Source: a virus
Lineage: Duplodnaviria; Caudoviricetes
Strand: one strand, 5' to 3'
Virus record (IMG/VR): IMGVR_UViG_3300027852_000047
Coordinates: 1-51,829 of that record
Length of the DNA: 51,829 nt
Shown: positions 4,712-51,829 of the stretch, piece by piece
Layout of the letters: every line of letters begins with the position of its first letter
How positions within the stretch are numbered: the stretch's first letter is position 1
The notes under the pieces: model-generated
The model's input: only the letters and a program-made list of their open reading frames with translations
The model's database searches: none
Told to the model about the DNA's origin: nothing
Translations under genes and position numbers: made by a program

Positions 4712-4719
4712 GAGGGGAC

Positions 4720-5283: not shown

Positions 5284-5295
5284 GAGAGGAAATAC

Positions 5296-5880: not shown

Positions 5881-5893
5881 AAAGGGGTGACAC

Positions 5894-6805: not shown

Positions 6806-6806
6806 T

Positions 6807-7208: not shown

Positions 7209-7214
7209 CATAAT

Positions 7215-7245
7215 GTGCCCCCTCTTCGGAGGGGGCGCTCCTTTT
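7215..7245 (+). terminator. Probable intrinsic terminator after the capsid genes
   Basis: GCCCCCTC-TTCG-GAGGGGGC hairpin (cUUCGg loop) followed by a short, offset T-run. Confidence 0.65.
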
Positions 7246-7255
7246 AGGAGGGGAA

Positions 7256-30035: not shown

Positions 30036-30752
30036 TTAGTCAGCCAGCAGCGCGTCCACATCCAGCTCGTCACCGAACGTAATGCGCAGCAAGTCACGCT
30101 GGCCCGCCTCGTCCAGCACATTCAGCCGGACTTCCTTGGTCGGGTCCACGATCTTCTCATCCCAGTCAGGGAAGATGTCATCCAGCTTGGCCTTCTTGCC
30201 ATTCAAGCTGGGTGTGTAGCGAGTCTTGAGGCCAGACCCCTCACGCATGATGACCAAGTCCTGCCCGTTGTCGGGGTCAGTGAAAAAGTCATCGTTGGTT
30301 TCCTGAGCCTGAGCCAGCAGCCCCACCACAGTGTTAGCCGTCTTGCGCGACAGGCCGATCAGCTTGGGGCCGAAGTACGAGTCTTCCGTACGGTCGTACA
30401 CCAGACCCTGCACATACCAGCGGGTGCTAGCGTTGAGCTTCTTGGCCATGGCAGCAGCGGTCTTGTCGCCAGTGTCGCCCAACGTGTAGAGGGCCTTGGT
30501 GACACGACACAGCAGGCAATCTTCCTCGCCGTCCCCGTGTTCTTTGAGGCAAGCCACCGCACAGCCACGATTCTCCGCGTCCTTGAGATTGAAGTGGTTG
30601 GTCACTGCCGTGAAGATGTTGCCACTCTCGTCCGTAGGCGGGAGCACCCTTATGCGAGTCGAGGTGTCTGGCTTGAGGTCGAAGAAGATGGAGTCACGCT
30701 CCGTGGACTTCTTGGCGGCAGCGATGTTGAGCTTGAAAACTTTCTTGGCCAT
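30036..30752 (-). CDS. T4 gp32-like ssDNA-binding protein
   Basis: IRVLPP, H..C..CLLC Zn ligands, DP.NG.D...REGSGLKTRY, acidic tail. Confidence 0.8.
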   Translation of the reverse strand: MAKKVFKLNIAAAKKSTERDSIFFDLKPDTSTRIRVLPPTDESGNIFTAVTNHFNLKDAENRGCAVACLKEHGDGEEDCLLCRVTKALYTLGDTGDKTAAAMAKKLNASTRWYVQGLVYDRTEDSYFGPKLIGLSRKTANTVVGLLAQAQETNDDFFTDPDNGQDLVIMREGSGLKTRYTPSLNGKKAKLDDIFPDWDEKIVDPTKEVRLNVLDEAGQRDLLRITFGDELDVDALLAD

Positions 30753-32892: not shown

Positions 32893-33080
32893 GGTTTCTC
32901 CTTGACTACATACGGGGCACTCCTACGTAAGGTTCTAACATTACGTATTGGCAGCACGTACTGTCGTTCGTCAACGAGGTCTAAGACCATGCAATTGCTG
33001 ACGTTAACAATATCGCATACCCCAGCTAACTGAATCTCGTCTCCATTCGCAAACCAAACCCTAACATCGCACACTTCCAT
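32889..33080 (-). CDS. Small beta-rich hypothetical protein
   Basis: TAATG overlap with the polymerase stop; pattern similar to 32710-32892. Confidence 0.6.
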   Translation of the reverse strand: MEVCDVRVWFANGDEIQLAGVCDIVNVSNCMVLDLVDERQYVLPIRNVRTLRRSAPYVVKEKP

Positions 33081-35431
33081 TACACATCCACCTTCTTCTT
33101 CGATCCCCACGACTCGCCTATCTCTACGTCACAGCCCATACCAATGGGCAACTCCACGCCCCAACGCTCAGTGTCGGGGTTCGTCATACAATGGTGCGCC
33201 AGCTTGGCTACTTCATCCTCTTCCCCGTGGTACAGGTCCACTACGATGGAGTCATGTACCTGAAGTACGAGCTTGCTTTTGTAGTTGCCTTCTTCCAACG
33301 CACGTGCAAATTTGATCATAGCACAACACGTAATCCACGCCGCAGTGTTCTGCACCAGCATGTTCCAAGCCTGCCGGTGGATGCGCCAGCCGTCGTAGCA
33401 GTTCCAGTATGCGGGCCTAGTGAAGCGCCTGCGGTACCCGAACGGTGACTGGATCTCCAGCGCAGTCTCCACCCGCACATGCACCCGGTCAATGTAGGTC
33501 TTGAGCTGGGGGAACGCTTGGTAGTACTGGACAATGAGTTCTTTGGCTGCGCCCTTGGATATCTCCAGCTGCTGGGAGAGCGTGTTCGCCCCGCCGCCGT
33601 ATAGAATTAAGAACGTCAGCTTCTTGCATCTTTGTCGCTCGTCGTCTACAATGTCGCTTGGGTCTTTGCGCAACATGGTTGCGGCCATGGCTGTATGCAA
33701 GTCCTCGCCAGATTCGATAGCTGCCTTCATTGCCTTATCGCCGGACAACATAGCAGCCACACGGATCTCAGCCTGCGCCATGTCGGCTTCCATGATGGAG
33801 CCGCCCTTGAATCTTGACACAAACTGGGACTTAATGTTGAGCGCCGGGTCGTCGCCCTCTTCACCGTGTGGCACGTTCTGACCGTTGGGATTGGAGGATG
33901 ACAGTCGATTGGTGCCTACCCTATCAGTATGGTAGCCGGGAAAGATGTAGTTCAGCCCGTCTCTCGACACCAAATACTTGTCACGAACCGACTTAACGAA
34001 CGTACCGTGTAGCTTGGCCTGCTTGCGGTACAGTAATACATCCTTGATGACTGGGTGCTTGTGCGCCTCACGTTGCAACACCCACTTCTTGGTAGTGAAG
34101 TCATCATCCGGCTTGTCACCAGCGTTGGGCCGATTGTTGTCGGACAGCTGGCGCACCAACTCACCCTTGGTCAGGTTGATATTGGGCACCACCTCAATGA
34201 GTGCCTTGGCTACCTGAGCTGGGCTGTTGAGGTTGATGGGCCCCAGCACAGCACAGATCTTCTCACGCAGTGCAGTCAGCCGTACGTCAAAATTAGCGTC
34301 TAGTTCCTCATTGATGGGAAGGGAGATGCAAGCTCCGTTGTGCTCCATCTCTGCGAGGACTGCGTATAGCTCCATGGAGAGCTTGAACGGCTTCCGAAGT
34401 CCTTGCTCATCCAGTAGTCGTCGTTGGGACTTGGCTGCACAGACGCTTGCCTCGCCGTCACCGCCACAATACTCGTACTGCTCATCGTCTCCAACAAACT
34501 CCCAGCCACCGCGTTCCGCAACGAGTTGACGGTGTGCTCTGGAATAGTCTCCAAGCCAATCAGCATACAGGAACGTGAGGGACTTGAGGTCTTTGAGCGG
34601 GTTGCGTTCGTCAAGGATGTGTTCTGCCGTAGAGGTATCGTGCATGCATACCATTCTGGTGCCAAATCGACGCAACCAACGATAGTCGAATTTGATATTC
34701 GAGCCTGCTTTTGTGACACTGGGGTCCACGATAATGTCAGTGAGCCATCCCGGGAACGAAGAATCTGGGCGTGCTTGTACAATAGTAGCTTTGTGGGCTC
34801 TATCCGTGATAACACACATGCGTATTCGGGCATCCGGATGCCACGGGTCAAGGCCCGGGTACGTTTCCAGATCCAAGCCAACAATAGAAGCACCAACCAA
34901 GTAATCAGGAATACTATCCCAAACTGGAGTGCCGGGTGTAAGGACATCATAGTCTCCCCACTTGGTTTCCACTGCACCATGCACAGCCGCTAGCAAGTCC
35001 CGCAGGTGCCACTTGTATAGGCCCGTCTGGGAGGCAGCGTGCTCCAGTGAGTGAGTGTAATGGACAGGGCAATCCACATCTGGCGCAGTATGCGCTTGGC
35101 GTAGCCCCTCCTTCAGCAACCCAGCCTTGCCTGAGCCTTGTATAGCTGATATAGCCGTAGGTCCAAAGCACAGTACGAAGTCCGGGTCGATGTCGCGGAT
35201 GTTGGCCAGCAGCTCTGGCCTATGAGCACGCAACACACGAATGCCGGGCTTCTTACGCGCCCCTTGGAACTTGGGGTCTTCAGTGGCGAACAGGTAGTAC
35301 ACCTCCACGCCTGAAGACTCTTCCAACCAGTCAATGTGCTTGGCATTAGTAAGGCACAACGGTTCCCCACCGCGCTTACCAATGCCATAGTCCACGTTGC
35401 CCAGCAGGAAGACTACCTTTTTAATTCGCAT
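33080..35431 (-). CDS. polA: Family A DNA polymerase with 3'-5' exonuclease and degenerate UDG-like N-terminal domain
   Basis: Exo DLET / NIKFD / YCGGD; T.RLSSSNPN.QN, ADMAQAEIR, RQRCKKLTFLILYG, QVHDS. Confidence 0.93.
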   Translation of the reverse strand: MRIKKVVFLLGNVDYGIGKRGGEPLCLTNAKHIDWLEESSGVEVYYLFATEDPKFQGARKKPGIRVLRAHRPELLANIRDIDPDFVLCFGPTAISAIQGSGKAGLLKEGLRQAHTAPDVDCPVHYTHSLEHAASQTGLYKWHLRDLLAAVHGAVETKWGDYDVLTPGTPVWDSIPDYLVGASIVGLDLETYPGLDPWHPDARIRMCVITDRAHKATIVQARPDSSFPGWLTDIIVDPSVTKAGSNIKFDYRWLRRFGTRMVCMHDTSTAEHILDERNPLKDLKSLTFLYADWLGDYSRAHRQLVAERGGWEFVGDDEQYEYCGGDGEASVCAAKSQRRLLDEQGLRKPFKLSMELYAVLAEMEHNGACISLPINEELDANFDVRLTALREKICAVLGPINLNSPAQVAKALIEVVPNINLTKGELVRQLSDNNRPNAGDKPDDDFTTKKWVLQREAHKHPVIKDVLLYRKQAKLHGTFVKSVRDKYLVSRDGLNYIFPGYHTDRVGTNRLSSSNPNGQNVPHGEEGDDPALNIKSQFVSRFKGGSIMEADMAQAEIRVAAMLSGDKAMKAAIESGEDLHTAMAATMLRKDPSDIVDDERQRCKKLTFLILYGGGANTLSQQLEISKGAAKELIVQYYQAFPQLKTYIDRVHVRVETALEIQSPFGYRRRFTRPAYWNCYDGWRIHRQAWNMLVQNTAAWITCCAMIKFARALEEGNYKSKLVLQVHDSIVVDLYHGEEDEVAKLAHHCMTNPDTERWGVELPIGMGCDVEIGESWGSKKKVDV

Positions 35432-35708
35432 AGGAACGGGCGTGTGTTACTGCTTTCAAGAGCAACTGCGCAACGACTTCCATGTAGTCGGGATTGCGAA
35501 ATGATAGATCCTCCAAATCCGTACCGTCAATAGCTACCATGCCATTGTTGCTCACTACAGTACGAATACGGTCGAACCAACCGTGCTGGCTGCTGAAAGT
35601 AGCTTTAGGGCTCCTGCGTTTGATCACTGTGTGGCCCTTGGCCTCAAGGGCATGAATAGCCTCAGCCTCGTCCACTTCTACACCATTGAGTTCGATCTTG
35701 GTTACCAT
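35421..35708 (-). CDS. Paralogue family, satellite cluster member (KIELNGVEVD)
   Basis: N-terminus shared with the two adjacent ORFs; AGGAGG RBS. Confidence 0.8.
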   Translation of the reverse strand: MVTKIELNGVEVDEAEAIHALEAKGHTVIKRRSPKATFSSQHGWFDRIRTVVSNNGMVAIDGTDLEDLSFRNPDYMEVVAQLLLKAVTHARSYAN

Positions 35709-35722
35709 TGGTTACCTCCTGT

Positions 35723-36004
35723 TTACTGATGCTTCGCAGCGTAGTCAATGGCGTGGCCAAGGGCAGTATGCGCAGCTCGCGCGTACTCCAAGCACCAGCC
35801 ATCCCCACCGTCTGCGGCAATGTCCTTATGGTAAATGTTAGCCCTATCCCCGTTTTTAGGAGATATGCTCACAGTAAAATTCTTGTACGTCCGGCCGCGC
35901 CGTATGGGAAAGGATTTGTCACACCCTGCGTCATGCTTGGCCACAGCAGCGCGCGCCTTTTCCACATCCACTTCCACACCGTCTAGTTTGATCTTGTTTG
36001 GCAT
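35723..36004 (-). CDS. Paralogue family, satellite cluster member (KIKLDGVEVD)
   Basis: Shared N-terminus; GGAGG RBS. Confidence 0.8.
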   Translation of the reverse strand: MPNKIKLDGVEVDVEKARAAVAKHDAGCDKSFPIRRGRTYKNFTVSISPKNGDRANIYHKDIAADGGDGWCLEYARAAHTALGHAIDYAAKHQ

Positions 36005-36288
36005 TAATTATCCTCCGCCCAGTCGCACGCTTTTACCAGTGCGGCTGCAACCTTACGCACGTAATCAACATCCATATGGGCGTTCAATTCGTGGAACTGG
36101 TGCGGAACTTTTGTGAATCTCACGGAACCATGGCCCCTATTGGAGCCTTCCACCCTGAAACTGTCAAACGGGGTGCTAAACACTTTAGCAATGTCTGGGT
36201 CTTGCACCTCATAGCCGAGTTTTCGCAGTGCAGCAGCAGCAGCAGCAGCGTCCGCTTCGACACCATTGAGTTCGATCTTGTCTGCCAT
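36004..36288 (-). CDS. Paralogue family, satellite cluster member (KIELNGVEAD)
   Basis: Shared N-terminus; AAGGAG RBS before ATG 36288. Confidence 0.8.
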   Translation of the reverse strand: MADKIELNGVEADAAAAAAALRKLGYEVQDPDIAKVFSTPFDSFRVEGSNRGHGSVRFTKVPHQFHELNAHMDVDYVRKVAAALVKACDWAEDN

Positions 36289-36337: not shown

Positions 36338-36916
36338 TCAGCGCGGGTCATATTGGTATCGCCTCAGATCCTCCATCGCACCGAACCTATCCAACCCATC
36401 CTTAGCGCCAAGCACTGCCATGGAATCCACTTGGTCCAGCACGTTGGCGTACTTCTCCACCACATGGTAGTAACCACGTGGCTTGTAATCGTGTACTAGT
36501 ATAGCACACTCATCGTCAAATGTCAACAGGCACGCCAGCACACAGGCCACACGAAAGCGCCCGTCCACCAACACCAAGTCAGCATCGTCCATGGCCCCAG
36601 CCAGTGGGTACAGAGGATAAGCTGGCCACAGGTGCTTGTGGGTGTCCCCAGCTGGGAAGCCCCACTCCTTGGTGGGCCCGAAGCATGGGAAGAACGGAAT
36701 GATACGCCCAGCGGCCATGCCTTCAGCTACGAATTTGTCCGCAGCTACGTTGGCACGGAACCACGCGTAGTCAGATTCCACTGTTACCATTGTAGGTACG
36801 CCCAGCAAAGCGGCCTGAAGGGTACTTTCTCCGGACCCGTACTCAAGGTAACACTCACAATCATCCAATCTCCACTCCAGCTCCGCAACTTCAGCTTCAG
36901 TCATTGTCGGCTGCAT
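36338..36916 (-). CDS. Class I SAM-dependent methyltransferase
   Basis: YLEYGSGEST, VTVESD, DLVLVDGRFR, ILVHDY; probable ATG 36916. Confidence 0.75.
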   Translation of the reverse strand: MQPTMTEAEVAELEWRLDDCECYLEYGSGESTLQAALLGVPTMVTVESDYAWFRANVAADKFVAEGMAAGRIIPFFPCFGPTKEWGFPAGDTHKHLWPAYPLYPLAGAMDDADLVLVDGRFRVACVLACLLTFDDECAILVHDYKPRGYYHVVEKYANVLDQVDSMAVLGAKDGLDRFGAMEDLRRYQYDPR

Positions 36917-39139: not shown

Positions 39140-39286
39140 CTAATGCAGCCATGCGTATATCCCTACGCTACACACAAAGGACGCCGCTATGCACAACACG
39201 CGGCCCTTTCGTGTTTCCGCCTGAGTACTATAGACTGCCCAAAGGACTGTACCTACAGTACACAGACCAGCCATTGCAATATTCAT
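39140..39286 (-). CDS. 48-aa two-TM protein
   Basis: Read manually; two hydrophobic stretches; ATGA overlap. Confidence 0.45.
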   Translation of the reverse strand: MNIAMAGLCTVGTVLWAVYSTQAETRKGRVLCIAASFVCSVGIYAWLH

Positions 39287-39666
39287 CTCTCCACCTTCCA
39301 CCTATCGTACTTGCTGACGCGAGATGCAGTCAGTGGTATAGACATGGTAGTCACAGGGCACTTGCCCCACGGTATCAGCCACCACCGATTCGTCTCTGCC
39401 CTCCACACCGCCAACGTATCGAAGTCGTCTGGATGGTAGTGAAGGTGCCGCCCCGTGCGGGACCGCAGCTCCACCTCCAGATACCTCTTGCCACGCTTGG
39501 TGCGGACGAACCCTCGCTTAACCTGCACACGCTCCAGCCCGTTGCCTCTGTCGATTACATAATCCACAGCGTGGCTTTGCACTGGGGTGTATACTCTCCA
39601 GTTGCGATACAGTGCAGACAGCACGAACTCCTGCTGTGCTACTGCACCTCTGGCGCTAGCCGTCAT
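39283..39666 (-). CDS. PD-(D/E)XK family endonuclease
   Basis: G..A, VYTP...VDYVID, RVQVK, Y...DFD motifs. Confidence 0.75.
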   Translation of the reverse strand: MTASARGAVAQQEFVLSALYRNWRVYTPVQSHAVDYVIDRGNGLERVQVKRGFVRTKRGKRYLEVELRSRTGRHLHYHPDDFDTLAVWRAETNRWWLIPWGKCPVTTMSIPLTASRVSKYDRWKVER

Positions 39667-40379: not shown

Positions 40380-40643
40380 TTAGTCCTCCCTAAACTTGTT
40401 GCATTGCTCGATTCCTCTTTGCAGAGCACGGATAAGCACCATTACGTTAACGGGTTCCCAGCCATAGTCGTCAGGCAACATAACGGCCCTACGTTTTATT
40501 ACTACACCCGTACGCTTGGCCGCTACGTCAACTCCGCAGCCCCCGCCGCAGTCCACAGGTTCCTTCGCCCGCTCGTCATACTCAACCAACGCAGCTCTCA
40601 CTTCGTTAGCGTCAGCTTGGCATGTGATCCTGATCATCGTCAT
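40380..40643 (-). CDS. Paralogue pair member (ITCQADANEVRAALVEYD)
   Basis: N-terminus shared with 40640-40903. Confidence 0.75.
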   Translation of the reverse strand: MTMIRITCQADANEVRAALVEYDERAKEPVDCGGGCGVDVAAKRTGVVIKRRAVMLPDDYGWEPVNVMVLIRALQRGIEQCNKFRED

Positions 40644-40903
40644 CCCTCCATTTTGGAAAGAGCCATAGTCAGCGCATCGCGAAGTCTTTTCACATTGCCA
40701 TACGACCAGCGGTGCTCACAGTGTGCATATAAGACACCTTTGTACGTTTCCCTGATAAGGCAGTACTCTTTGGAAGCACTAACTCTCACGTTGCAATGTC
40801 CACCGAAATTCTCCACGGCGTCCTTGGCCTTGTCATAGTCAACCAACGCAGCCCTCACGGCTTCAGCGTCAGCCTCACAGTTGATGGTGATCTTGTCAGT
40901 CAT
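40640..40903 (-). CDS. Paralogue pair member (INCEADAEAVRAALVDYD)
   Basis: First gene after the 40944-40972 promoter; AAGGA RBS. Confidence 0.75.
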   Translation of the reverse strand: MTDKITINCEADAEAVRAALVDYDKAKDAVENFGGHCNVRVSASKEYCLIRETYKGVLYAHCEHRWSYGNVKRLRDALTMALSKMEG

Positions 40904-40943: not shown

Positions 40944-40972
40944 AGTATAGCACACCTACCGGGACAAGTCAA
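40944..40972 (-). promoter_or_regulatory. sigma70-type promoter
   Basis: TTGACT-17 bp-TATACT with extended TG. Confidence 0.8.
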
Positions 40973-41598: not shown

Positions 41599-41627
41599 CG
41601 CGTAGCACATTTTGACCGGGTTGTCAA
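41599..41627 (-). promoter_or_regulatory. sigma70-type promoter (weak -10)
   Basis: AT-rich UP element, TTGACA-17 bp-TACGCG; shares AACACTTGACAA..ATGTGCTAC with the 49725 promoter. Confidence 0.55.
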
Positions 41628-42414: not shown

Positions 42415-42520
42415 TACGCTAGAAACCAGCATATTACAAATATAAATGCCAGCGCACACATGCACAGTACAGATTCCCATACTGAAGGGTAAGGATTTGC
42501 GTTGTATTCTCGCATGTCAA

Positions 42521-42967
42521 TCACCTCCATTGGCCATAGTCCGGCTCTTCGTGTGCGTATAGTCGCGTAATGGCTTTCTCATATCGCTTCACCAAAGACA
42601 CAGGTATCTGACGGAAGCGTCCGGGTGCCAAGTGGTCACTCAAGTCCGCTAACTTAACCGTCGTAGCTACCTTATGCAAGGCTACTCTGTCTATATATTG
42701 CCGATACGTCTCGCTCGATAGGCGCGTAAGCACCGTCACTTGGGTAGCGAGGAATGGCGGCACACCTAGACGAAGCAGCTGGGCTTCGGTAATGTACGAG
42801 TCCTCTATGATATCGTGCAACGCACCAACGATGCGTAGTTTGTCACCGTCGAGTGCCAACGCAACCCGCATACTGTGCTCGAAGATCGAGTCACCCGCGT
42901 AGTCTATCTTGTTTGATAGAGCGCGCATTGCTATGCGGTATGCGTCGTGTGCTGTGAACGTGTTCAT
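42521..42967 (-). CDS. HD-domain hydrolase (SpoT/Mesh1-like)
   Basis: H..RVA, ALHDIIED, LTR, VKLAD motifs. Confidence 0.8.
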   Translation of the reverse strand: MNTFTAHDAYRIAMRALSNKIDYAGDSIFEHSMRVALALDGDKLRIVGALHDIIEDSYITEAQLLRLGVPPFLATQVTVLTRLSSETYRQYIDRVALHKVATTVKLADLSDHLAPGRFRQIPVSLVKRYEKAITRLYAHEEPDYGQWR

Positions 42968-43037
42968 GTCCAGATCCTCTTGTGCAAGTCGCGGAGGTAT
43001 ACCCACCACAACTCTAACATGTCACCTAACATGTTAC

Positions 43038-43100
43038 CTACTTCCGCAGCCACCAGAAAATGTCGGCTACGAGAATAGTGAATAGCACTGTGTGAAGCAT
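43038..43100 (-). CDS. 20-aa membrane micro-peptide MLHTVLFTILVADIFWWLRK
   Basis: AAGGAG RBS; last 10 aa identical to the peptide at 50080-50151. Confidence 0.65.
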   Translation of the reverse strand: MLHTVLFTILVADIFWWLRK

Positions 43101-43110
43101 GTTGTCTCCT

Positions 43111-43410
43111 TTAGTAGGCGGGCATGGTATCATGCACACCCTGCAGTTCACTGATGACCCGCGCCAGCTCCCGCTTGTTGGGGTAGGCGTAGTTGTCACC
43201 GAAGTTGGATTCCTTGCGACCCAGATAAATCCGGGGCAGATTATCCGGGCCGGGGCGTTGCACAACGAGGCGCACGCCACACGAAGTAAACCGCGTATTG
43301 ATTCCGTCGTCAAAGGCAGGCTTGATTGCAGCACTGAACCCCTGAGCAGACAGTTGGGCGATGAGGCTGTCAAGATCCACAGTCGCACCGTCGATGGTGA
43401 TGTTGGCCAT
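43111..43410 (-). CDS. Tandem paralogue array member 9 (MANITIDGATV)
   Basis: Conserved I.IDG..V...L..QL..QG N-terminus. Confidence 0.85.
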   Translation of the reverse strand: MANITIDGATVDLDSLIAQLSAQGFSAAIKPAFDDGINTRFTSCGVRLVVQRPGPDNLPRIYLGRKESNFGDNYAYPNKRELARVISELQGVHDTMPAY

Positions 43411-43412
43411 TG

Positions 43413-43724
43413 TTACTCCATTTCCGCGTGAGTCTTCTCCAACTCATCAATAAGGTGGCGCAAGCCAGCCTTGGTATAGTGCTGTCCAGTTCCCCACGAA
43501 ATATCATCAGTGCGTCTGTTGTTGAATATGCTGATGTCCACGGTGTGCATGCAGCTGGGGTCCACGGAGTAGCGCCGCACGCGAGCCTGCGCATTGCCCG
43601 GGGACTTGATGTTCCACTCAGTTATGCATTTGCGCGTGATGGTAGCGTCGTACCCCTGTGCCCGCAGCTGCGTTTGCAGTGCGTCCAGTTCGACAGACGC
43701 CCCGTCGATGTTGATGTTGGCCAT
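43413..43724 (-). CDS. Tandem paralogue array member 8
   Basis: MANINIDGASVELDALQTQLRAQGY. Confidence 0.85.
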   Translation of the reverse strand: MANINIDGASVELDALQTQLRAQGYDATITRKCITEWNIKSPGNAQARVRRYSVDPSCMHTVDISIFNNRRTDDISWGTGQHYTKAGLRHLIDELEKTHAEME

Positions 43725-43726
43725 TG

Positions 43727-44011
43727 TTACCAGTTCCTTTCACTCTTGATGCGCTCCATCTGTGCCATCAGGCGCAGGAAGCGGGTTTTGTCATAAATGC
43801 GCGTGGCTCCCCGATCAAAGTCGGAGATGCGCAGCTCTACGCATTCGGGGTCGGAGGTGCGCTCGTAAGCGGTCAGCCCTGAGTTCATGGCGTTACCACT
43901 GAGAGGCAGGAACGCGGCTTTGATTGTAACGTCAAAGCCCTGCGCCTTGAGCTGGCGCACCAGCTCGTCCTTGTCAACGGCAGCGCCGTCGATGTTGATG
44001 TTGTTGTGCAT
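43727..44011 (-). CDS. Tandem paralogue array member 7
   Basis: MHNNINIDGAAVDKDELVRQLKAQGF. Confidence 0.85.
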   Translation of the reverse strand: MHNNINIDGAAVDKDELVRQLKAQGFDVTIKAAFLPLSGNAMNSGLTAYERTSDPECVELRISDFDRGATRIYDKTRFLRLMAQMERIKSERNW

Positions 44012-44020
44012 GTCGTCCTT

Positions 44021-44326
44021 TTACCAGCCCATTTCGTACTGGATTTTCTGGAGTTCCTTGACCAGTTCGTTGGTGCGTTCCTTGTCCAGTATCGAACAGT
44101 TGTTATCAAACTGCTCGTCCTCGACGTAGTCAGGATCACCGATTGTCATGCGGTATGTGCCGGAGCCGTCTTTTTCAACGGTCATAACGAACGTACTGCG
44201 GTCGATACGTCGCCCTGTTTCCACCAGCCCATAACTGCGCTCGATACTTGCGGTGAAGCCCTGCTCTTTGAGCTGGGCTATGAGCGAATCCCGCTCTACC
44301 GTAGCACCGTCGATGTTGATGCCCAT
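44021..44326 (-). CDS. Tandem paralogue array member 6
   Basis: MGINIDGATVERDSLIAQLKEQGF. Confidence 0.85.
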   Translation of the reverse strand: MGINIDGATVERDSLIAQLKEQGFTASIERSYGLVETGRRIDRSTFVMTVEKDGSGTYRMTIGDPDYVEDEQFDNNCSILDKERTNELVKELQKIQYEMGW

Positions 44327-44335
44327 GTCGTCCTT

Positions 44336-44629
44336 TCACCAGCCCATTTCGGACTGGAACTGCTGAAGTTTCTCGATCAGTGCGGCCATGTCGTGCCTGT
44401 CGGTCAGCACCAGAGCTTCCTCAAGCCCGGCGTCCGGGTCACCGATTGCCATGTAGAACATTTCCTCATTATGACGTTCGGTAAACACACCGATGTCACG
44501 CACGGTGGTCAGCCCGTACTCGGAAAGGTCATGGCGCTTGGCCAGCTCCACTTTGTACCCCTGCTCTTCGAGCTGGCGCACAAGCGAACTCTTCTCGACG
44601 GTCGCGCCGTCGATGTTGATGTTAGCCAT
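44336..44629 (-). CDS. Tandem paralogue array member 5
   Basis: MANINIDGATVEKSSLVRQLEEQGY. Confidence 0.85.
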   Translation of the reverse strand: MANINIDGATVEKSSLVRQLEEQGYKVELAKRHDLSEYGLTTVRDIGVFTERHNEEMFYMAIGDPDAGLEEALVLTDRHDMAALIEKLQQFQSEMGW

Positions 44630-44685
44630 TGTTGGTTATCCTTTCTACTGGGCTACGCGCCAGCTTTGCGTTGGTTGTGCCAACT

Positions 44686-44997
44686 TTACTCGCCCAGTTC
44701 AGTAGCCAGTTCGCCCAGCATGTTCGCCAGTCCGCGCAACTGGTACCCGCTGAAGCACATGTACCCTTCGGGGACAGTGTACCCCATCGCATTGCAGTTG
44801 ATCTGTATGCCTGCCCACTTATGGCTGCACACCGGATCAGAGGAATGAGCCACATTCATTGAGACGCCTTTGTCAGATCGGCGGCCTTCTATGATCTCCG
44901 CTTTCTTTTGAATAGACACCTCGAAGCCCTGCTCCTCCAGCTGAGCCGTGAGCATGTCCAGTTCGACGGTCGCGCCGTCGATGGTGATGTCAGTCAT
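44686..44997 (-). CDS. Tandem paralogue array member 4
   Basis: MTDITIDGATVELDMLTAQLEEQGF. Confidence 0.85.
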   Translation of the reverse strand: MTDITIDGATVELDMLTAQLEEQGFEVSIQKKAEIIEGRRSDKGVSMNVAHSSDPVCSHKWAGIQINCNAMGYTVPEGYMCFSGYQLRGLANMLGELATELGE

Positions 44998-45280
44998 CCC
45001 AGCCCCACTTCTCGTTGTAGGCCGTCTGGAATACGTCGATCATGTTACGGAAATCCTCTTTGTCCAGCTTGGCAATCACACTGAACCCCGCATTTTCGAG
45101 CAGGTGAATGTGTGGGCCGTTACCGCTGAGAACCACCCCGTTGGTGTCATAGTTCTGACTCAACAGGTGATAACGCGGCACCTTCTTATTGATAGTGGCG
45201 TCGTAGCCTTGGGCCTCAAGCTGGCGCATGAGGTTGTCCTTGTCCACGTTGACACCGTCGATGTTGATGCTGTTGTCCAT
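44990..45280 (-). CDS. Tandem paralogue array member 3
   Basis: MDNSINIDGVNVDKDNLMRQLEAQGY. Confidence 0.85.
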   Translation of the reverse strand: MDNSINIDGVNVDKDNLMRQLEAQGYDATINKKVPRYHLLSQNYDTNGVVLSGNGPHIHLLENAGFSVIAKLDKEDFRNMIDVFQTAYNEKWGWDD

Positions 45281-45291
45281 GTGTTCCTTTC

Positions 45292-45588
45292 CTAGGCCAG
45301 TTCGGCCTTGACCTTGTTCAGCTCGCTGATGAGCTGGTCGATGGCGCGGCGGGTCATGGTGTATGTCTTGTCTTTGTTGTTGCCACTGTAAGCCCCAACC
45401 CCAAAATAAATCTGGGCTACTTGCTCACTGTACGGGTGTATCTCCAGATACGAGGCATTGTAAAAGCCCACTACGCGCTTTTCCACGCCCCGTACCTTGT
45501 GGATACTGACATCAAACCCCTGCTCTTCGAGCTGGCGGGTAAGGCTGCCAGTGTCCACGTTGACACCGTCGATGTTGATGTTGGCCAT
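45292..45588 (-). CDS. Tandem paralogue array member 2
   Basis: MANINIDGVNVDTGSLTRQLEEQGF. Confidence 0.85.
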   Translation of the reverse strand: MANINIDGVNVDTGSLTRQLEEQGFDVSIHKVRGVEKRVVGFYNASYLEIHPYSEQVAQIYFGVGAYSGNNKDKTYTMTRRAIDQLISELNKVKAELA

Positions 45589-45603
45589 GTCGTCCTTTCG
45601 GCA

Positions 45604-46227
45604 TCAGATTTCGATGCCCAGTTCGCGCAGCTTCTCCAGAATTTCATCCGTATCGCTGCTGTTCTGGCAGATGACTTCGATTTGCGTCGTCATGTCAGCC
45701 AACTTCTGCAAGTAATCGGTGTGTGCCGACAGCTTGCCCCGGAGTTCCTGTCCCGCATCGGAACAGTACGAAATGTCGAACTGCTGTTCGGGCAGCTCTC
45801 CCTCGCGCACGCAGACGGTGGCCGGATCGACAGCACTGTCTCGCCAAGCGTAGTTGAGATGGAACCCCATCTCGCCCAGCTCATGCTCCACAGCCTTCTT
45901 ACGGTCACGCTTCGGCGCGTTCAGCTCATTGGCTGCCGCGTGCTTATCCAAAATAACCGCCTTGTCAGCTTCGTACTGGTCCCGAAGGGCCTGAAGCTCG
46001 TCACGGTTACTCTTGCGCACAGCCGAAGCGGCATCGTTGATTGCGTACAGCTCGTTGGCCAAGTCGGTAGCGCCATGCTGGCGCGCCAACGCTTTGGTGA
46101 TGTCCGCAGTCGCACGTTCCTTGGTGCGCGTGGCTTCGATCCTCATATTACCCAGCAGGTTGTGTGCGTTGTTGGTCAACGTCTTACGCTGCGTGGCAGT
46201 CGCGTTCTTCTTCTTCTTTTCGCTCAT
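45604..46227 (-). CDS. Coiled-coil hypothetical protein heading the array
   Basis: GGAGGT RBS; 207 aa, helical. Confidence 0.75.
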   Translation of the reverse strand: MSEKKKKNATATQRKTLTNNAHNLLGNMRIEATRTKERATADITKALARQHGATDLANELYAINDAASAVRKSNRDELQALRDQYEADKAVILDKHAAANELNAPKRDRKKAVEHELGEMGFHLNYAWRDSAVDPATVCVREGELPEQQFDISYCSDAGQELRGKLSAHTDYLQKLADMTTQIEVICQNSSDTDEILEKLRELGIEI

Positions 46228-46265
46228 ATTACACCTCCCTTCGAGCCGTTAGGGTTTGGCGCATG

Positions 46266-46523
46266 TTACCAATATTTCGCGGATGCGCGGACAATGTAGC
46301 CGTCTTCGACGTACATATACGCGCTCCAGTACTTGAAGTAACTGGCTTTTGAATTTTCCTGATAGATACGATGCTTGCCGGTAAGCACCACAGAGTTATC
46401 TGTCGCTATCAGTTGGAGCTTCACGCCATTACGCAAGGCTCTTTGTAGCGCCTCCAGTGTCTTGTAAGCCCGTGACAATCTGGGCGCGTCTTTGCCGAAG
46501 TGGTTGGTTTCCATCAGGTCCAC
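46266..46523 (-). CDS. Hypothetical protein
   Basis: Overlaps the upstream stop; operon packing. Confidence 0.6.
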   Translation of the reverse strand: MDLMETNHFGKDAPRLSRAYKTLEALQRALRNGVKLQLIATDNSVVLTGKHRIYQENSKASYFKYWSAYMYVEDGYIVRASAKYW

Positions 46524-46825
46524 GCCATTTCTCGCCGGATCTTCTGCAATTCCGCGATGATACCGGACAGGCGGTCTTTGTTCACGATAGCGTAATCGCT
46601 ATCGTGTCTGACATCGCAGTCGCCCAGCGTCATTCTCACGGTGTCGGTGTTCGCGCTGGCGGATACGCACAACTGGCACGCGCCTCTCGCGCCAAAACGC
46701 TTTCCGACACTCTTCAGGCCCACGCGTCTTGTGATAGTGGCGTCGAACCCCTGCACGTGCAGTTGGTTGATCAGACTGACCGTGTCTACGCCCGCACCGT
46801 TGATATTAATAGTACCCATTTTCAC
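46514..46825 (-). CDS. Tandem paralogue array member 1
   Basis: MGTININGAGVDTVSLINQLHVQGF; GGAGGT RBS (start may be 46819). Confidence 0.85.
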   Translation of the reverse strand: MKMGTININGAGVDTVSLINQLHVQGFDATITRRVGLKSVGKRFGARGACQLCVSASANTDTVRMTLGDCDVRHDSDYAIVNKDRLSGIIAELQKIRREMAWT

Positions 46826-46829
46826 CTCC

Positions 46830-47015
46830 CTATTTGGATTTGATCACTTCGTCCACAAATGCAGCGCCCATTCTGGTCGCCACGCTTACGAGGTGGCTGG
46901 GTGACAGGTCTAACACACTGATTTCAGTTGTGTTACCGGACCCGTCGTCCAGTAATATCTTGTCAGGCAAAGGCACGATGTACGTGCCGCCCGTTGTAGG
47001 GACTTTGTAATCCAT
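46830..47015 (-). CDS. Hypothetical protein
   Basis: Operon packing. Confidence 0.55.
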   Translation of the reverse strand: MDYKVPTTGGTYIVPLPDKILLDDGSGNTTEISVLDLSPSHLVSVATRMGAAFVDEVIKSK

Positions 47016-47285
47016 ACTATTTTCCCGTCGTTGCTTTCTTTGCCGCTATAGTGTACTCTTTTCCACACACAGTACAGCGTACAAAATTACCGGACTCTTT
47101 CGGTTTGCAAGTGTTCATTACACGGTTTCCTTTGCCGTGAATGTCGTCTTGCATAGGGTGTACGCACGTACATTTATGTATCATACGTTACTCCTTCACC
47201 AAGTTTGCTATTACAGTCCAGCCAACCGCAAGGGCCACTGGGCCACCAACTAAGGTGATAAGTAACATCCGAACTACTTCAGACA

Positions 47286-47474
47286 TTACATCTCCTTTCG
47301 ATACCTGTGTGGCGCTAACGTAATGTTACTTCGTAACCAGTTGCGCCACGCAACATGTTCTCCGATGGTGCGCATCGTTTCCACGTCTTGTACCTTATTG
47401 GCTGCGCGGAACATCGCACTTATTTCACGGTAACTACACTGGCGCAACCTGAAGGGAAGCGCTAAGTTAGTCAC
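47286..47474 (-). CDS. Small helical protein, paralogue of 47721-47885
   Basis: FRLR..AA..HVAWRNWL; probable GTG 47474. Confidence 0.6.
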   Translation of the reverse strand: MTNLALPFRLRQCSYREISAMFRAANKVQDVETMRTIGEHVAWRNWLRSNITLAPHRYRKEM

Positions 47475-47632
47475 CAGATAACCTTGCAACCGTGCTTACG
47501 GAAGTACAGTTCAACTTCCCACAATCTTACTTGCTCCGCGAAGTACTCGCGGGTTTCACGGTCATTGATTTTGCGTGCTGTGGCGCTCATCTCAAGCGCA
47601 CGCACCAGCATCTTTTTGGCATGTCCATACAT
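47471..47632 (-). CDS. Small helical hypothetical protein
   Basis: AAGGAGG RBS before ATG 47632. Confidence 0.6.
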   Translation of the reverse strand: MYGHAKKMLVRALEMSATARKINDRETREYFAEQVRLWEVELYFRKHGCKVIW

Positions 47633-48283: not shown

Positions 48284-49042
48284 CTGCCAAGATGGCAGGG
48301 ACCTTTCCTACTCCATCAAGGGGCGTATTCAGCCCCTACCATGTTGGCGATACCGGCAGGGTGTATTGAGGTGTATACATTACTACCTCGCTCTTACACC
48401 CCTGCTGCGACTTCAATTGCTCCACAAGCCGTCACTTGCTTCTCAGCAGCATTAGTCGCCATTTGTGCCGGGAGTTAGCTGTTTGGCGTGCTACTCCCGG
48501 CGGGCAAGGGCGGGCAGCTTTGCCGTGCTGCATTGCAAGCCCCTGCTCTGTGTCTAGCAAGATACGGTCCGGCAGGAGTCGCACCTGTCCGTATTTTTAG
48601 ACCTTTACGTCAACCGTATCTCTATGGCAGCTTGGTCCACTGCCAATATGTAGGGTAGGCTGTAACTAATCGTTACAATTGTGCTTAAGGGCACCTACCC
48701 TGTGCTACCAAGGTCTTTCAGTCTTGTGCGCCTTGCGTTGCATCAAGTTGCGCGTGCTGGCCCTGATCCGCATGACTTGGTCCTGCGGTTCTCTGTCTTT
48801 CTTTGCCTGTCTGTCTCCGAAGATACAACTAGCATGTGGCCTGTCGTCTCCGGTAATCACGGGGGGAACACTTCCTACCCGTTTGGCCTCTGCTAGCACC
48901 TTGTTGTCCTGCAAGGACTGTGCCACCTTGGCCCTATTGTCGATGTACATTCATACATCCTTTTGTTGTGCCAGAGGTTAGGGCCTTGTGGGCCTCTGCC
49001 CCCGGCGGACATGCCAAGATATGCAGGCTGTGTGCCTGATAT
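48284..49042 (-). ncRNA. Candidate structured non-coding RNA region
   Basis: Successive 6-11 bp stems, several with G-U pairs only on the minus strand; one T-loop-like hairpin. Confidence 0.4.
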
Positions 49043-49555
49043 CGGGATAATGGTGTAAGTTATTACACTGCAACGGGTTACGAGCTTGGTTGCTATTGGT
49101 ATGTATCTTGCTAACCATGCATAATGCAACCCTACTATACATATAGTAATCGCCTAAACCTATGTGATATATGCACTTATGAGGTATTCGCAATGTGCAA
49201 TGTGAGTATGCATTATGCCCTATGCTGCATGTGTGTCTCATTTGAGACATAATGTCTCACTGGTATCTGTGGAGTGAGACATACATGTCCTAAAAACAGG
49301 ACACTAATGCATATTGCATTGGGCATACCGACATGCATGCATACTGCATTGGCCCAGTGGCATGCATGCATAATGCATGGGGCAAGGGAGTATGCCATTG
49401 TGTCATGCGGTATGCTGTCATGTGTCCGGGGGTACACGTACTCTTTTTAGGACACTTACCCCCACACAGGCCCACAGGGGCGTATATCACCCATTTAATG
49501 CAGTCTGGCCAATACTTGCTAAAATAAAAAACACCCCCTATACAAAAAGCATACT

Positions 49556-49597
49556 CACATAGGGCTACCCACATAGGGCTACCCACATGGGGCTAGC
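49556..49597. repeat. 14-bp tandem repeat x3 (CACATAGGGCTACC)
   Basis: Two exact copies and one with two mismatches. Confidence 0.85.
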
Positions 49598-49724
49598 CTC
49601 TCTGGGAAAGTTGGCTAACATATAACACCCACAGCGCCAATTGAGGTATATTGCATAAGTGTATGCAGTATGTAGTATTAAGGTGTTAGGGCATTGGGCT
49701 ATGGGTATATGCATATGGGTAAGA

Positions 49725-49753
49725 AGGGTAGCACATCTGGAAACGTTTGTCAA
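49725..49753 (-). promoter_or_regulatory. Leftward sigma70-type promoter
   Basis: TTGACA-17 bp-TACCCT with extended TG. Confidence 0.65.
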
Positions 49754-49929
49754 GTGTTTTCTTTGCCAAGGGGCAAAATAGTTTGTAAACCCTGCGGGAG
49801 CAGCATATTACTAGCCACCGATGGCGTAACTGGAACTAATAGCTACACTTAGCTTAACACTTAACTCCAGCGTTTACAGGGACTTAGGGCATTGGTGGCC
49901 ACAGTATGCGAAAATAATTCAGAAAACAC

Positions 49930-49958
49930 TTGACAAAGTTTCCGGAAAGTGATAAACT
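49930..49958 (+). promoter_or_regulatory. Rightward sigma70-type promoter (terminase operon)
   Basis: TTGACA-17 bp-TAAACT with extended TG; palindrome TTTCCGGAAA in the spacer. Confidence 0.8.
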
Positions 49959-50811: not shown

Positions 50812-50889
50812 GGGCGTGAGTGGTCTAATAGGAAAGACGCTGCACATTGTGCGGAGACGAGGGTTCGAGTCCCTCGCTAGCCCCCACCA
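50812..50889 (+). tRNA. tRNA-like element with a shortened anticodon arm
   Basis: D arm GTCT-AATAGGAA-AGAC, T arm GAGGG-TTCGAGT-CCCTC, 3' ACCA; anticodon loop only 5 nt; acceptor stem bulged. Confidence 0.65.
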
Positions 50890-50902: not shown

Positions 50903-51829
50903 ATGTCCCAACAGAATCTTCCTGAACTACTGGAGCTTCTCTGTGATCTCGACGCGTTGCTCGCAACATACCGAACCAACAAGATCGTGTTCTACAGGCC
51001 CATCGGCCAGCAACCCGCCTTCCACTCCGGAGGACGGGCGTTCGTACGTGTGGTACTTGGAGCAAATCGCTCCGGAAAGTCAGTAGGTGGTGCCTGTGAG
51101 GCAATTGCTCATTCACTCGGCTACCGCCCGTGGTTGCCAGAATCCCATCCGGATCGCACAGTATCACTTCCAGATGGATCACCAATCCCCGTACCTAATG
51201 TTGGACGAGTTCTGGCTCAAAACTATGAACACGCCATTAAACAGACCATCTGGGGCAAGTACGAGGAATGGGCACCCAAGCACCTAATCAAGAAAGTTCA
51301 CTACAACCAACGCCAAGTCCCTACGCAGATTGACTGGGCCAACGGGTCAGTTACATACTTCATGTCCAACGACCAGAAGGACATGGTCTTTGAGGGTACC
51401 AACGGACATTGGTTCTGGGTGGATGAGCCCTGCGACTATTCCAAGTACGTGGGACTCAAACGTGGCCTGACTGACTTTGGCGGACACTGCTGGATGACGC
51501 TCACGCCCCTCACGCAGCCATGGATCTACAACATCTTGGTTTCGCGTGCTGGCGATGACGACGATGACTCAGTGTTGCTGTACAAGTTGTCCATCTGGGA
51601 CAACTGCATCGACAACGGTGGCCACCTGTCCAGAGCAGCCATCAATGAGTTCCTCAAGGATCTACGTGAAGAGGAAATGGAAGCTCGCCTCCATGGCAAC
51701 TTCCTCCACTTGGCTGGACGAGTATTCAAAGCGTGGCAGCCCACGACGCCATACTGGGTCAACCCGCACCCCATCCCGCGAACATGGCCCCGGGTTTGTG
51801 TGATTGATCCACACAAGCGCAAGCCCTGT
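50903..51829 (+). CDS. terL: Terminase large subunit, N-terminal ATPase half (open at the window end)
   Basis: Read manually (absent from the ORF track): Q..FH, Walker A GANRSGKS, Walker B FWVDEP, motif III TLTP. Confidence 0.92.
   Translation, partial: MSQQNLPELLELLCDLDALLATYRTNKIVFYRPIGQQPAFHSGGRAFVRVVLGANRSGKSVGGACEAIAHSLGYRPWLPESHPDRTVSLPDGSPIPVPNVGRVLAQNYEHAIKQTIWGKYEEWAPKHLIKKVHYNQRQVPTQIDWANGSVTYFMSNDQKDMVFEGTNGHWFWVDEPCDYSKYVGLKRGLTDFGGHCWMTLTPLTQPWIYNILVSRAGDDDDDSVLLYKLSIWDNCIDNGGHLSRAAINEFLKDLREEEMEARLHGNFLHLAGRVFKAWQPTTPYWVNPHPIPRTWPRVCVIDPHKRKPC
51704..51829. repeat. Terminal direct repeat, copy 2
   Basis: Identical to 8-133. Confidence 0.95.

Follow-up and report, generated by a model that had tools for sequence, protein, structure and literature searches.

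The leftward arm of a complete marine phage genome (51.7 kb; the window, that is, the whole stretch of 51,829 nucleotides that was analysed) carries an array of nine small paralogous genes, whose products share a constant N-terminal module and a conserved C-terminal helix on either side of a strongly diverged centre. We tentatively propose that they form a diversified group of small binders built on one frame, which would serve host takeover or counter-defence. All nine ORFs listed by an earlier note on this DNA were present on the minus strand, at 43111-45588 and 46514-46819, with lengths of 94-103 aa:

43111-43410, minus strand: A1, 99 aa, pI 5.7, ATG behind GGAG (P0005)
43413-43724, minus strand: A2, 103 aa, pI 6.1 (P0004)
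43727-44011, minus strand: A3, 94 aa, pI 6.6 (P0008)
44021-44326, minus strand: A4, 101 aa, pI 4.5 (P0001), AlphaFold model pLDDT 74.4
44336-44629, minus strand: A5, 97 aa, pI 4.5 (P0002)
44686-44997, minus strand: A6, 103 aa, pI 4.6 (P0007)
44990-45280, minus strand: A7, 96 aa, pI 4.8 (P0009)
45292-45588, minus strand: A8, 98 aa, pI 6.1 (P0006), AlphaFold model pLDDT 69.8
45604-46523, minus strand: two unrelated genes between A8 and A9, 207 aa (45604-46227) and 85 aa (46266-46523)
46514-46819, minus strand: A9, 101 aa from the ATG at 46819, pI 9.0 (P0003, 101-aa form)

The ORF of A9 reaches 46825, the ATG at 46819 behind GGGAGG being the likelier start. A1-A8 are packed 2-56 nt apart or overlapping; from A1 to A9 the intergenic gaps are 2, 2, 9, 9, 56, -8, 11 and 925 nt (the start of A6 and the end of A7 share 8 nt) and the start-to-start spacings 314, 284, 321, 300, 368, 280, 311 and 1231 nt (repeat family D1). 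No family was found for the two interrupting genes, and neither the N-module nor the C-helix profile matches them. A single-member query against the genome returned exactly nine places (E 2.5e-63 to 8.6e-6), and when the profile of the nine was run against the 444 ORFs of the window the members scored at or below 3e-26 and the next ORF at 0.004. The nine paralogues take up about 5% of the 51.7 kb, or about 7% together with the three group B genes described below.

The shared N-terminal motif reported earlier is borne out by nine invariant residues in the nine-member alignment (I4, I6, G8, V11, L16, Q19, L20, Q23 and G24), and the contrast between constant and variable parts is real: pairs of members share on average 54% identity over the N-terminal ~30 aa, 12% over the central ~45 aa and 24% over the C-terminal helix (24 aa). 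Leave-one-out profiles of ten sequences, the nine paralogues and P0010, detected the last 24 aa in nine of ten members, at no more than one of 1000 shuffles, whereas the central ~45 aa did no better than most shuffles in eight of the ten. The stretch that separates the N-terminal module from the C-terminal helix has not a single invariant column. Synonymous differences are near saturation in all regions (pS 0.62-0.71; 0.63 in the N-terminal part), and pN is 0.32 in the N-terminal part against 0.66 in the middle. The dN/dS comparison per domain that had been suggested cannot tell relaxed from positive selection, because synonymous sites are near saturated. Eight of the nine invariant residues are written with two to four different codons; therefore the constraint acts on the protein, and, with synonymous sites saturated and N-terminal pN low, the N-terminal frame is held by long-standing purifying selection at the protein level.

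The claim that the family is undescribed stands: searches of Pfam, PHROGs, NCBIfam and PDB sequences gave no match. In a set of 1.84 billion representative proteins, one protein, borne on a fragment of 567 bp, is the sole real match beyond the nine themselves, and it is the only relative found outside this genome. The capsid protein and the C-terminal domain of the polymerase share about 33% identity with their closest IMG/VR relatives. The phage is without close relatives, and the family has been seen in one metagenomic genome and one fragment only. The genes do not look like targets of a diversity-generating retroelement, which needs a reverse transcriptase and a near-identical template/variable repeat pair: the RVT_1 model found nothing in six frames at E <= 1, and the window holds no near-identical repeats besides the terminal 126 nt.

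At least three genes with the N-terminal module, at 35421-36288, had been missed by the earlier note. These, and two further genes that start in a loosely similar way, are as follows:

35421-35708, 35723-36004 and 36004-36288, minus strand: group B, three adjacent genes of ~94 aa with a related N-terminal module
40380-40643 and 40640-40903, minus strand: group C, two adjacent genes of 87 aa with the start K-I-T-I-N-C-E-A-D followed by a helix

The group B module reads K-I-x-L-[ND]-G-V-E-x-D followed by a helix, and its three genes (DNA repeat family D6) rank 10, 12 and 14 of the 444 ORFs by the profile of the array (group A) before retraining. Alignment of the A and B profiles by hhalign gave E 1.6e-5 with 79% probability over the first 30 columns; a search for group B relatives outside the present genome found none. 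The family has nine members, and probably twelve with group B. Comparison of B with C gave E 7.5e-4 yet a probability of just 25%, A and C did not match in hhalign, and the combined A and B module profile does not pick up the group C genes, which are tentative candidate members.

AlphaFold models of A4 and A8, built on the same 10-row alignment and hence not independent, have one topology: a beta-hairpin and helix, then four strands and a long helix. DSSP places strands at 37-42, 45-51, 58-63 and 77-80 and the helix at 82-99 in A4, and strands at 33-42, 45-52, 60-62 and 76-78 and the helix at 80-97 in A8; pLDDT in the sheet region is just 50-71 in both. Both predicted models contain the beta-beta-beta-beta-alpha repeat topology of the PC4-like superfamily (PMC7549692). 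In an all-against-48,161-chain structure search, for which the tool notes a typical best chance score of Z 7-8, the top rows for both models were PUR repeat III, Pur-alpha and PC4 homologues, at Z 5.0-5.9 over 59-66 residues and so below that noise mark. PUR/PC4 chains occupy ranks 1-8 for A4 and ranks 1-6 and 8 for A8, again with Z below the mark. PURA repeat III scored Z 5.5 (rmsd 2.6, 65 residues) and Z 5.9 (rmsd 3.7, 66 residues), and the phage T5 PC4 homologue (4bg7) Z 5.2 and 3.9. Foldseek against PDB and BFVD gave nothing at E <= 0.001 (best E >= 0.37). The earlier description of the fold as loosely PC4/PUR-like therefore agrees with the top structural neighbours, although the scores are weak (Z <= 5.9; Foldseek E >= 0.37). 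In these models the centre and C-terminal helix are predicted to make up a unit of four strands and a helix that resembles a PUR repeat or PC4 half-domain; solved structures of such units are helix-swapped dimers. A helix-swapped dimer, intra- or intermolecular, is described for every member of the PC4-like fold in PMC7549692.

The array lies at 43-47 kb on the minus strand, in the leftward arm alongside replication genes and among unannotated small genes, and the portal, capsid and terminase genes occupy the plus strand, at 1-7 kb and at 50.9 kb. Three copies of a host-type promoter-like element, TTGACA-N14-GTGCTA, are placed as follows:

49729-49753, minus strand: half of a divergent pair (inverted repeat I1), upstream of the array arm
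36502-36526, minus strand: D16, about 210 nt upstream of group B
40948-40972, minus strand: D16, about 45 nt upstream of group C

The motif has four minus-strand copies against 0.21 expected, and four were reached in none of 100 shuffles. The position of the array in the leftward arm behind such an element may mean early expression, but a terminator-like hairpin (49564-49536) intervenes between the first leftward element and the array, and no strong promoter nearer than 49729-49753 was seen.

From these data we infer a fold, any oligomerisation, an expression timing and a function for the family. The nine array genes and three group B genes would encode small cytoplasmic proteins on one frame, comprising an N-terminal beta-hairpin and helix of ~30 aa under purifying selection, a central ~45 aa of predicted beta strands that have lost all detectable sequence similarity and, in the nine, a conserved amphipathic C-terminal helix. 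The constant parts would serve folding and self-association, or docking on one common partner, and through its diverged sheet each paralogue would bind a ligand of its own, a host protein or a nucleic acid. The array may be an old, lineage-specific expansion of binders made from a leftward, host-promoter-driven arm, and would thus constitute a repertoire for host takeover or counter-defence; the "anti-defence library" of the earlier note is likewise something that we infer. A common frame with centres diverged past recognition is what one would expect of a scaffold that displays differing binding surfaces, and the pI spread of the nine, 4.5 to 9.0, is as expected with differing ligands. Against this reading, no member is related to a protein of known function, and group B lies within the replication operon, a place that suits a role in DNA metabolism no less well. 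A further version, which we regard as improbable, is that the twelve paralogues can replace one another as subunits of helix-swapped PC4/PUR/COMM-like dimers or rings, with the N module and C helix as a universal mixing interface and the diverged sheets as a combinatorial binder repertoire against variable host defence or takeover targets; about ten genes would then yield tens of distinct dimers.

A somewhat unlikely alternative is that the proteins are PC4/PUR-like binders of single-stranded nucleic acid in the phage's own replication, recombination or transcription, perhaps as homo- or heterodimers with differing preferences. Both searches place ssDNA/RNA binders, among them the T5 homologue, as the nearest solved folds, and group B stands immediately upstream of the DNA polymerase gene (33080-35431) and follows a promoter-like element of its own; moreover, type II PC4-like domains are described as dimeric, with nucleic acid bound on the sheet (PMC7549692). 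In the nine paralogues, however, the sheet region has no conserved basic or aromatic residue and no invariant column, and four of the nine have pI 4.5-4.8. A gp32-like SSB is already encoded at 30036-30752, Pfam PC4 (PF02229) and PurA (PF04845) match neither the nine proteins at E <= 1 nor the six-frame genome at E <= 10, and nine to twelve copies are hard to square with housekeeping. It is doubtful, too, that the N-terminal module is a targeting tag delivering variable cargo to one machine, for example the capsid for co-injection. Such a tag would share the design of T-even internal proteins, constant N terminus with diverse bodies (PMC3012670), and one module does occur on twelve proteins of two otherwise unalignable subfamilies; but the genes belong to the replication/early strand, lie about 37 kb away from the capsid gene (5894-6805) and are outside the rightward structural arm, and the module is predicted to be a folded 30-aa unit, accompanied in the nine by the C-terminal helix, rather than a short cleavable peptide. 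No separate prohead protease was found among ten proteins scanned against PHROGs, including five head-module ORFs (3905-8113), and protease-family matches fell on the capsid ORF only.

That the array is a decayed relic of an old gene amplification, its copies now redundant or neutral, is distinctly unlikely. The genes lie in tandem in one orientation, each of unit length, with a junction repeat (D5; 43994-44069 and 44309-44384) 82% identical over 76 nt, and an experiment on counter-defence evolution in T4 reportedly proceeded by tandem amplification. T4 counter-defence has been evolved experimentally through recombination, according to bioRxiv 10.1101/2022.04.14.488369. Nevertheless, open frames with ATG starts and ribosome-binding sites persist in all nine genes despite saturated synonymous divergence, and invariant residues use differing codons; neutral copies would have decayed. 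It is extremely improbable that the real genes are instead the long plus-strand ORFs opposite (44006-44848 and 45421-46299): long open frames do exist there, but the minus frames agree with the periodic conservation, with the starts and their ribosome-binding sites and with the stops, codon differences at invariant residues are silent when read in the minus frame, and the plus frames cross several unit boundaries.

Phage early regions are rich in small proteins of unknown function and have been the source of many counter-defence proteins. Should the favoured reading of a diversified binder set hold, the family would offer a compact natural scaffold and a probe set for host targets in a marine bacterium.

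Among known systems, the type II PC4-like proteins (PUR repeat III, the PC4 C-terminal domain, T5 4bg7 and BPSL1147) resemble the array in a unit of ~65-70 aa ending in a long amphipathic helix, here predicted. The phage paralogues differ in lacking a PC4 or PurA sequence match, in adding a conserved N-terminal hairpin-helix module, in a sheet without conserved nucleic-acid-binding residues, many members being acidic, and in occurring as twelve copies in one phage genome. COMM-domain proteins, such as the COMMD1-10 ring, align with the models over the three-strand-plus-helix part only (residues 42-101), at Z 3.6-4.5, below the PUR/PC4 chains, and the ten COMMD paralogues heterodimerise through the COMM domain. 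Unlike the array proteins, they are cellular proteins of eukaryotes or bacteria, and they have a helical N-terminal domain that is separate; there is no sequence match, the COMM family being absent from the Pfam scan of the nine proteins at E <= 1. AcrIIA22, a PC4-like anti-CRISPR from hypervariable loci, is likewise small, comes from a phage or mobile element, has a PC4-like sheet and sits amid small ORFs of unknown function (PMC8545432); it is, however, a single-gene DNA nickase without the C-terminal helix, and no similarity to the array was found. The T-even internal proteins (IPI, IPII, IPIII and polymorphic alternatives) share with the array a conserved N-terminal segment on diverse small phage proteins; they are described as diverse and defence-countering, with only the conserved N-terminal targeting sequence in common (PMC3012670). 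The constant part of the array proteins is ~30 aa and predicted to be folded, the C-terminal helix is conserved as well, and the genes are in the leftward replication/early arm and not with head genes, a position that does not agree with internal proteins. If the proposed binder set is real, it would be the second phage repertoire of constant handle and variable body after the T-even internal proteins.

All nine minus-strand ORFs that the earlier note had described as an array of paralogues are present, eight of them contiguous at 43111-45588 (A1-A8) and the ninth at 46514-46819 (A9). The eight contiguous genes start 280-368 nt apart, with gaps of 2, 2, 9, 9, 56, -8 and 11 nt between them, and the start-to-start spacing to A9 is 1231 nt. 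All nine open with an ATG preceded by a ribosome-binding site of AAAGGA or GGAG type; in A9 this is more likely the ATG at 46819. The N-terminal motif proposed for the family is matched exactly by nine invariant residues (I4, I6, G8, V11, L16, Q19, L20, Q23 and G24), and one array member used as a query finds nine places in the genome at E 2.5e-63 to 8.6e-6, far beyond chance. The isoelectric points of the encoded proteins span 4.5 to 9.0. At two neighbouring gene junctions (43994-44069 and 44309-44384) a 76-nt stretch is 82% identical, with much lower similarity elsewhere in the units; it takes in the tail of one array gene together with the ribosome-binding site and start of its successor, and may be the trace of an unequal crossing-over duplication or of local homogenisation. 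Antisense open frames at 44006-44848 and 45421-46299 (plus strand; 280 and 292 aa) span several array genes and are judged to be shadow ORFs of the minus-strand genes. A 207-aa gene, one of two unrelated genes splitting the array between A8 and A9, was ruled out as a chimera with the family C terminus, as it is not detected by a profile of the C-terminal helix of the nine.

The contrast between a constant N terminus and a divergent body is real, with a mean pairwise identity among the nine of 54% over the N-terminal ~31 columns, 12% over the middle and 24% over the C terminus. Whole-protein identities are 21-43%, and adjacent genes are not clearly closer than distant ones. Leave-one-out profiles were built for ten proteins, the nine and their sole outside relative P0010, with 1000 shuffles each. 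The left-out middle of ~45 aa was recognised in only two of the ten (A4, P0001, at 3/1000 shuffles and A9, P0003, at 0/1000), whereas the last 24 aa were recognised in nine at ≤1/1000, the exception being A6 (P0007, 24/1000); the array proteins are thus constant-variable-constant in design. Non-synonymous proportions are 0.32, 0.66 and 0.51 in the N-terminal, middle and C-terminal parts, and pS is 0.62-0.71 in all three, near saturation. Since pS is near saturation and the invariant residues are encoded by two to four different codons, bar one isoleucine, conservation of the N-terminal part acts on the protein, and purifying selection on it is supported; with synonymous sites saturated, positive selection on the centre is not separable from merely relaxed selection, so that the term hypervariable, used in the earlier note, exceeds what is shown. 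Recent gene conversion or a nucleotide-level signal as the keeper of the constant region is excluded by a pS of 0.63 and the differing codons. Judged from the sequences, the duplications behind the array are old. A diversity-generating retroelement as the source of the diversity was rejected: the RVT_1 model had no match in six frames at E ≤ 1, and the only near-identical repeat of the window is the 126-nt one at its ends.

The family is hardly found elsewhere. The nine gave only noise in Pfam at E ≤ 1, no match in NCBIfam or PDB sequences, and nothing in PHROGs at E ≤ 0.01 save one marginal match of A8 to phrog_26424 (unknown function, E 0.0054). A family profile run against 1.84 billion representative proteins had 11 matches, namely the nine themselves, P0010 and a spurious 827-aa repeat protein (P0011), and a search of 5.8 billion clusters listed seven proteins, six of the window's own and P0010. 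The latter (102 aa) has an identity of 27-36% with the nine, to none of which it is closer than they are to one another, and is known from a single 567-bp contig, the window's own proteins coming from two contigs; it is a weak hint that another phage may carry a different family member. A tblastn search with P0010 against 50,697 phage records found nothing. Pattern scans of IMG/VR (141 and 6 matches), JGI metagenomes (306) and GTDB genomes (207) yielded no confirmed match, a search of 63 distantly related IMG/VR loci translated in six frames found no match at E < 0.5, and feature scores in the ESM Atlas did not exceed 0.78, with no structural lead that could be used. A full-text literature search turned up no account of such an array, and one may still be in print. 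By these searches the array represents a new sequence family nearly unique to one genome.

The record is rated 100% complete by CheckV, its 51,829 bases being the whole IMG/VR virus record. Bases 8-133 are duplicated exactly at 51704-51829, a 126-nt direct repeat at both record ends, 51,696 nt apart; in IMG/VR the record is nevertheless entered as linear and lacking end repeats. The only public run that holds the phage, a marine metagenome that may be its source, contains it as a contig of 51,726 bases. The unique genome is about 51.7 kb; the end repeat and this contig point to circular assembly or terminal redundancy, and the genome was probably assembled as a circle. No variants or joints were found in 42500-47500 in the contigs of the marine run. 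The two arms carry the following genes.

Annotated genes of the two arms
plus strand, genes for terminase, portal, capsid and a tail spike-like protein
19687-23757, plus strand, 1356-aa ORF in the structural arm, without a Pfam family and with one marginal PHROG match of unknown function (E 0.00055)
minus strand, genes for family-A DNA polymerase, ribonucleotide reductase and a gp32-like SSB
minus strand, genes for DnaB-type helicase, Toprim primase and RuvC
minus strand, HD phosphohydrolase gene and tRNA-Glu
28685-29569, minus strand, Cas4-domain exonuclease-like gene in the replication arm (PHROG E 1.3e-14)
39283-39666, minus strand, PD-(D/E)XK endonuclease gene in the replication arm (Pfam E 6.3e-10)

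The 1356-aa product may be an internal virion or ejection protein. A partial tRNA-like match, the second in the genome, lies at 50821-50875 (plus strand) between a 225-aa ORF and the terminase gene (Rfam 29.6 bits against a gathering threshold of 29, model positions 8-63); ARAGORN made no call there. The polymerase is at most 27% identical to anything among the 50,697 phage records, and its C-terminal domain is mostly 31-36% identical to IMG/VR contigs; the capsid protein reaches at most 33% with any IMG/VR contig, and a search for relatives of the helicase returned none. No DNA relatives were found among the 50,697 phage records by blastn of the array or megablast of 25 kb. As far as these comparisons reach, the phage is without a close relative.

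Related N-terminal modules occur elsewhere in the minus-strand arm, in three adjacent genes of ~94 aa upstream of the DNA polymerase gene (group B) and, tentatively, in two further genes (group C).

Genes of groups B and C
35421-35708, minus strand, group B gene starting K-I-x-L-[ND]-G-V-E-x-D, then a helix
35723-36004, minus strand, group B gene with the same start
36004-36288, minus strand, group B gene with the same start, set at an ATG behind AAAGGAG
40380-40643, minus strand, group C gene starting K-I-T-I-N-C-E-A-D plus a helix
40640-40903, minus strand, group C gene with the same start

Group B ranks 10th, 12th and 14th of 444 window ORFs by a profile of the nine alone (best E 0.004), and in profile-profile comparison the first 30 columns of the two sets align at E 1.6e-5 (probability 79%). 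At their C termini the group B proteins are not matched by the C-helix profile built from the nine, and a search for outside relatives of group B returned only its own three members. Group C aligns with group B at E 7.5e-4 with a probability of only 25%; nothing aligned between it and the nine, and it is undetected by an N-terminal module profile of the twelve (the nine plus group B). On the six-frame genome this profile recovers its own twelve, and every other match has an E of 0.45 or worse; since the twelve are its training set, the result bears only on whether more copies exist, and additional degenerate copies are thereby rejected. The module is likely present in twelve copies, and possibly in fourteen counting group C.

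A motif, TTGAC-N14-GTGCTA, occurs in four copies, all on the minus strand (0.21 expected; 0/100 shuffles reach four).

Copies of the promoter-like motif
49729-49753, minus strand, leftward
41603-41627, minus strand, leftward
40948-40972, minus strand, leftward
36502-36526, minus strand, leftward

Two copies have the form TTGACA/TTGACT-17-TATACT and carry a TG extension. The promoter-like motif is phage-specific, and its copies split the minus-strand arm into transcription units. The element at 49729-49753 diverges from a plus-strand partner at 49930-49958, and at this promoter-like pair the genome switches from one arm to the other. The array, surrounded by unannotated small genes and with the HD phosphohydrolase gene after it, is found 2.9-6.6 kb downstream of the 49729-49753 element; groups C and B directly follow one further copy of the motif each, a placement that fits expression by the host polymerase. 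Between the first element and the array, ~170 nt downstream of the former, a terminator-like hairpin (49564-49536, minus strand) has 11 pairs followed by GGTGTTTTTT; it may delimit a short leader RNA, or serve for attenuation or antitermination before the early genes. From its position the array is probably expressed early; the intervening hairpin, and the fact that no strong promoter nearer to the array was seen, speak against taking this timing as firm, and no RNA run that holds the stretch is listed. Between the divergent pair and the first small genes, ~1.1 kb (48650-49760) lacks a convincing ORF and is rich in ATGCAT-type palindromes and short direct repeats (e.g. 49332-49357 and 49361-49386), so that an origin of replication or a field of operators may lie here.

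Two array proteins, A4 (44021-44326) and A8 (45292-45588), 25% identical to each other, were modelled with the same 10-row alignment under both models (pLDDT 74.4 and pTM 0.48 for A4; 69.8 and 0.36 for A8). Both share the order strand, strand, helix (residues ~2-22), four strands and a long C-terminal helix, with pLDDT 74-93 in the N-terminal module and C-terminal helix and 50-71 in the sheet. In exhaustive alignment against 48,161 chains, the A4 model matched PURA repeat III (Z 5.5, rmsd 2.6, 65 residues), the PC4 homologues of Burkholderia (Z 5.3) and phage T5 (Z 5.2), Drosophila Pur-alpha repeat III (Z 5.0), Borrelia Pur-alpha (Z 4.5) and human PC4 (Z 4.4), and the A8 model PURA repeat III (Z 5.9) and the same chain set (Z 4.5-5.2), all of them (Z 4.4-5.9) below the tool's typical chance best of 7-8, so that by size alone they prove nothing. 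COMM domains come next in both lists (Z 3.6-4.5), and the PUR, PC4 and COMM alignments cover residues ~28-101 only. That one fold class tops both lists carries some weight for these models. For comparison, the AcrIIA22 paper took a Z of 6.2 to the T5 protein as a PC4-like call (PMC8545432), and the PC4-like fold is defined in a review as a four-strand-plus-helix repeat always paired by helix swapping, within one chain or between two (PMC7549692). The loose PC4/PUR likeness suggested earlier holds insofar as such chains top both searches, but Z does not exceed 5.9 and Foldseek against PDB and BFVD found nothing at E ≤ 0.001. The body resembles a PC4/PUR half-domain in predicted topology and differs in sequence, the PC4 and PurA sequence models having no match to the family; it may work like such a half-domain, and we do not assign the family to the PC4-like fold. 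An A4 homodimer prediction (two copies, with alignment) scored 0.30 against a mark of 0.42, a value that speaks neither for binding nor against it. A PepSY-like fold was set aside, with just one Pfam match at E 0.12 and two low Foldseek rows.

The array is a real, clean and unexplained feature of a single uncultured marine phage; its fold assignment is weak, and there is no pointer to any particular target. We tentatively propose that it encodes small binding proteins that have diversified on a shared frame; the frame is under long-term purifying selection with every copy kept intact, and the centre, diverged beyond recognition, is predicted to form the exposed sheet. This proposal draws on the intact frame, the diverged centre, the wide range of isoelectric points, the place among early-arm ORFans and the T-even and AcrIIA22 precedents. 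The main rival, that the proteins are nucleic-acid binders in phage DNA metabolism, accords with their PUR/PC4 structural neighbours and with group B adjoining the polymerase gene; we consider it rather unlikely, given a sheet without any conserved basic or aromatic residue, the acidic members, the copy number and a gp32-like SSB already encoded.

Use of the N-terminal module as a targeting tag is improbable, the genes lying away from the head genes, and a neutral relic is just as hard to credit when all nine genes are intact although their synonymous sites are saturated. Coding on the plus strand instead is so unlikely as to be scarcely credible. The boldest reading compatible with the data, for which we see only a slim chance, is that mix-and-match helix-swapped subunits would form a combinatorial binder repertoire. 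Analogues are known for the design, in which many tandem copies join a conserved handle to a diverged body: the T-even phages give a precedent in their counter-defence proteins with a constant handle and a variable body (PMC3012670). AcrIIA22, a PC4-like anti-CRISPR, is a precedent for PC4-like counter-defence (PMC8545432).
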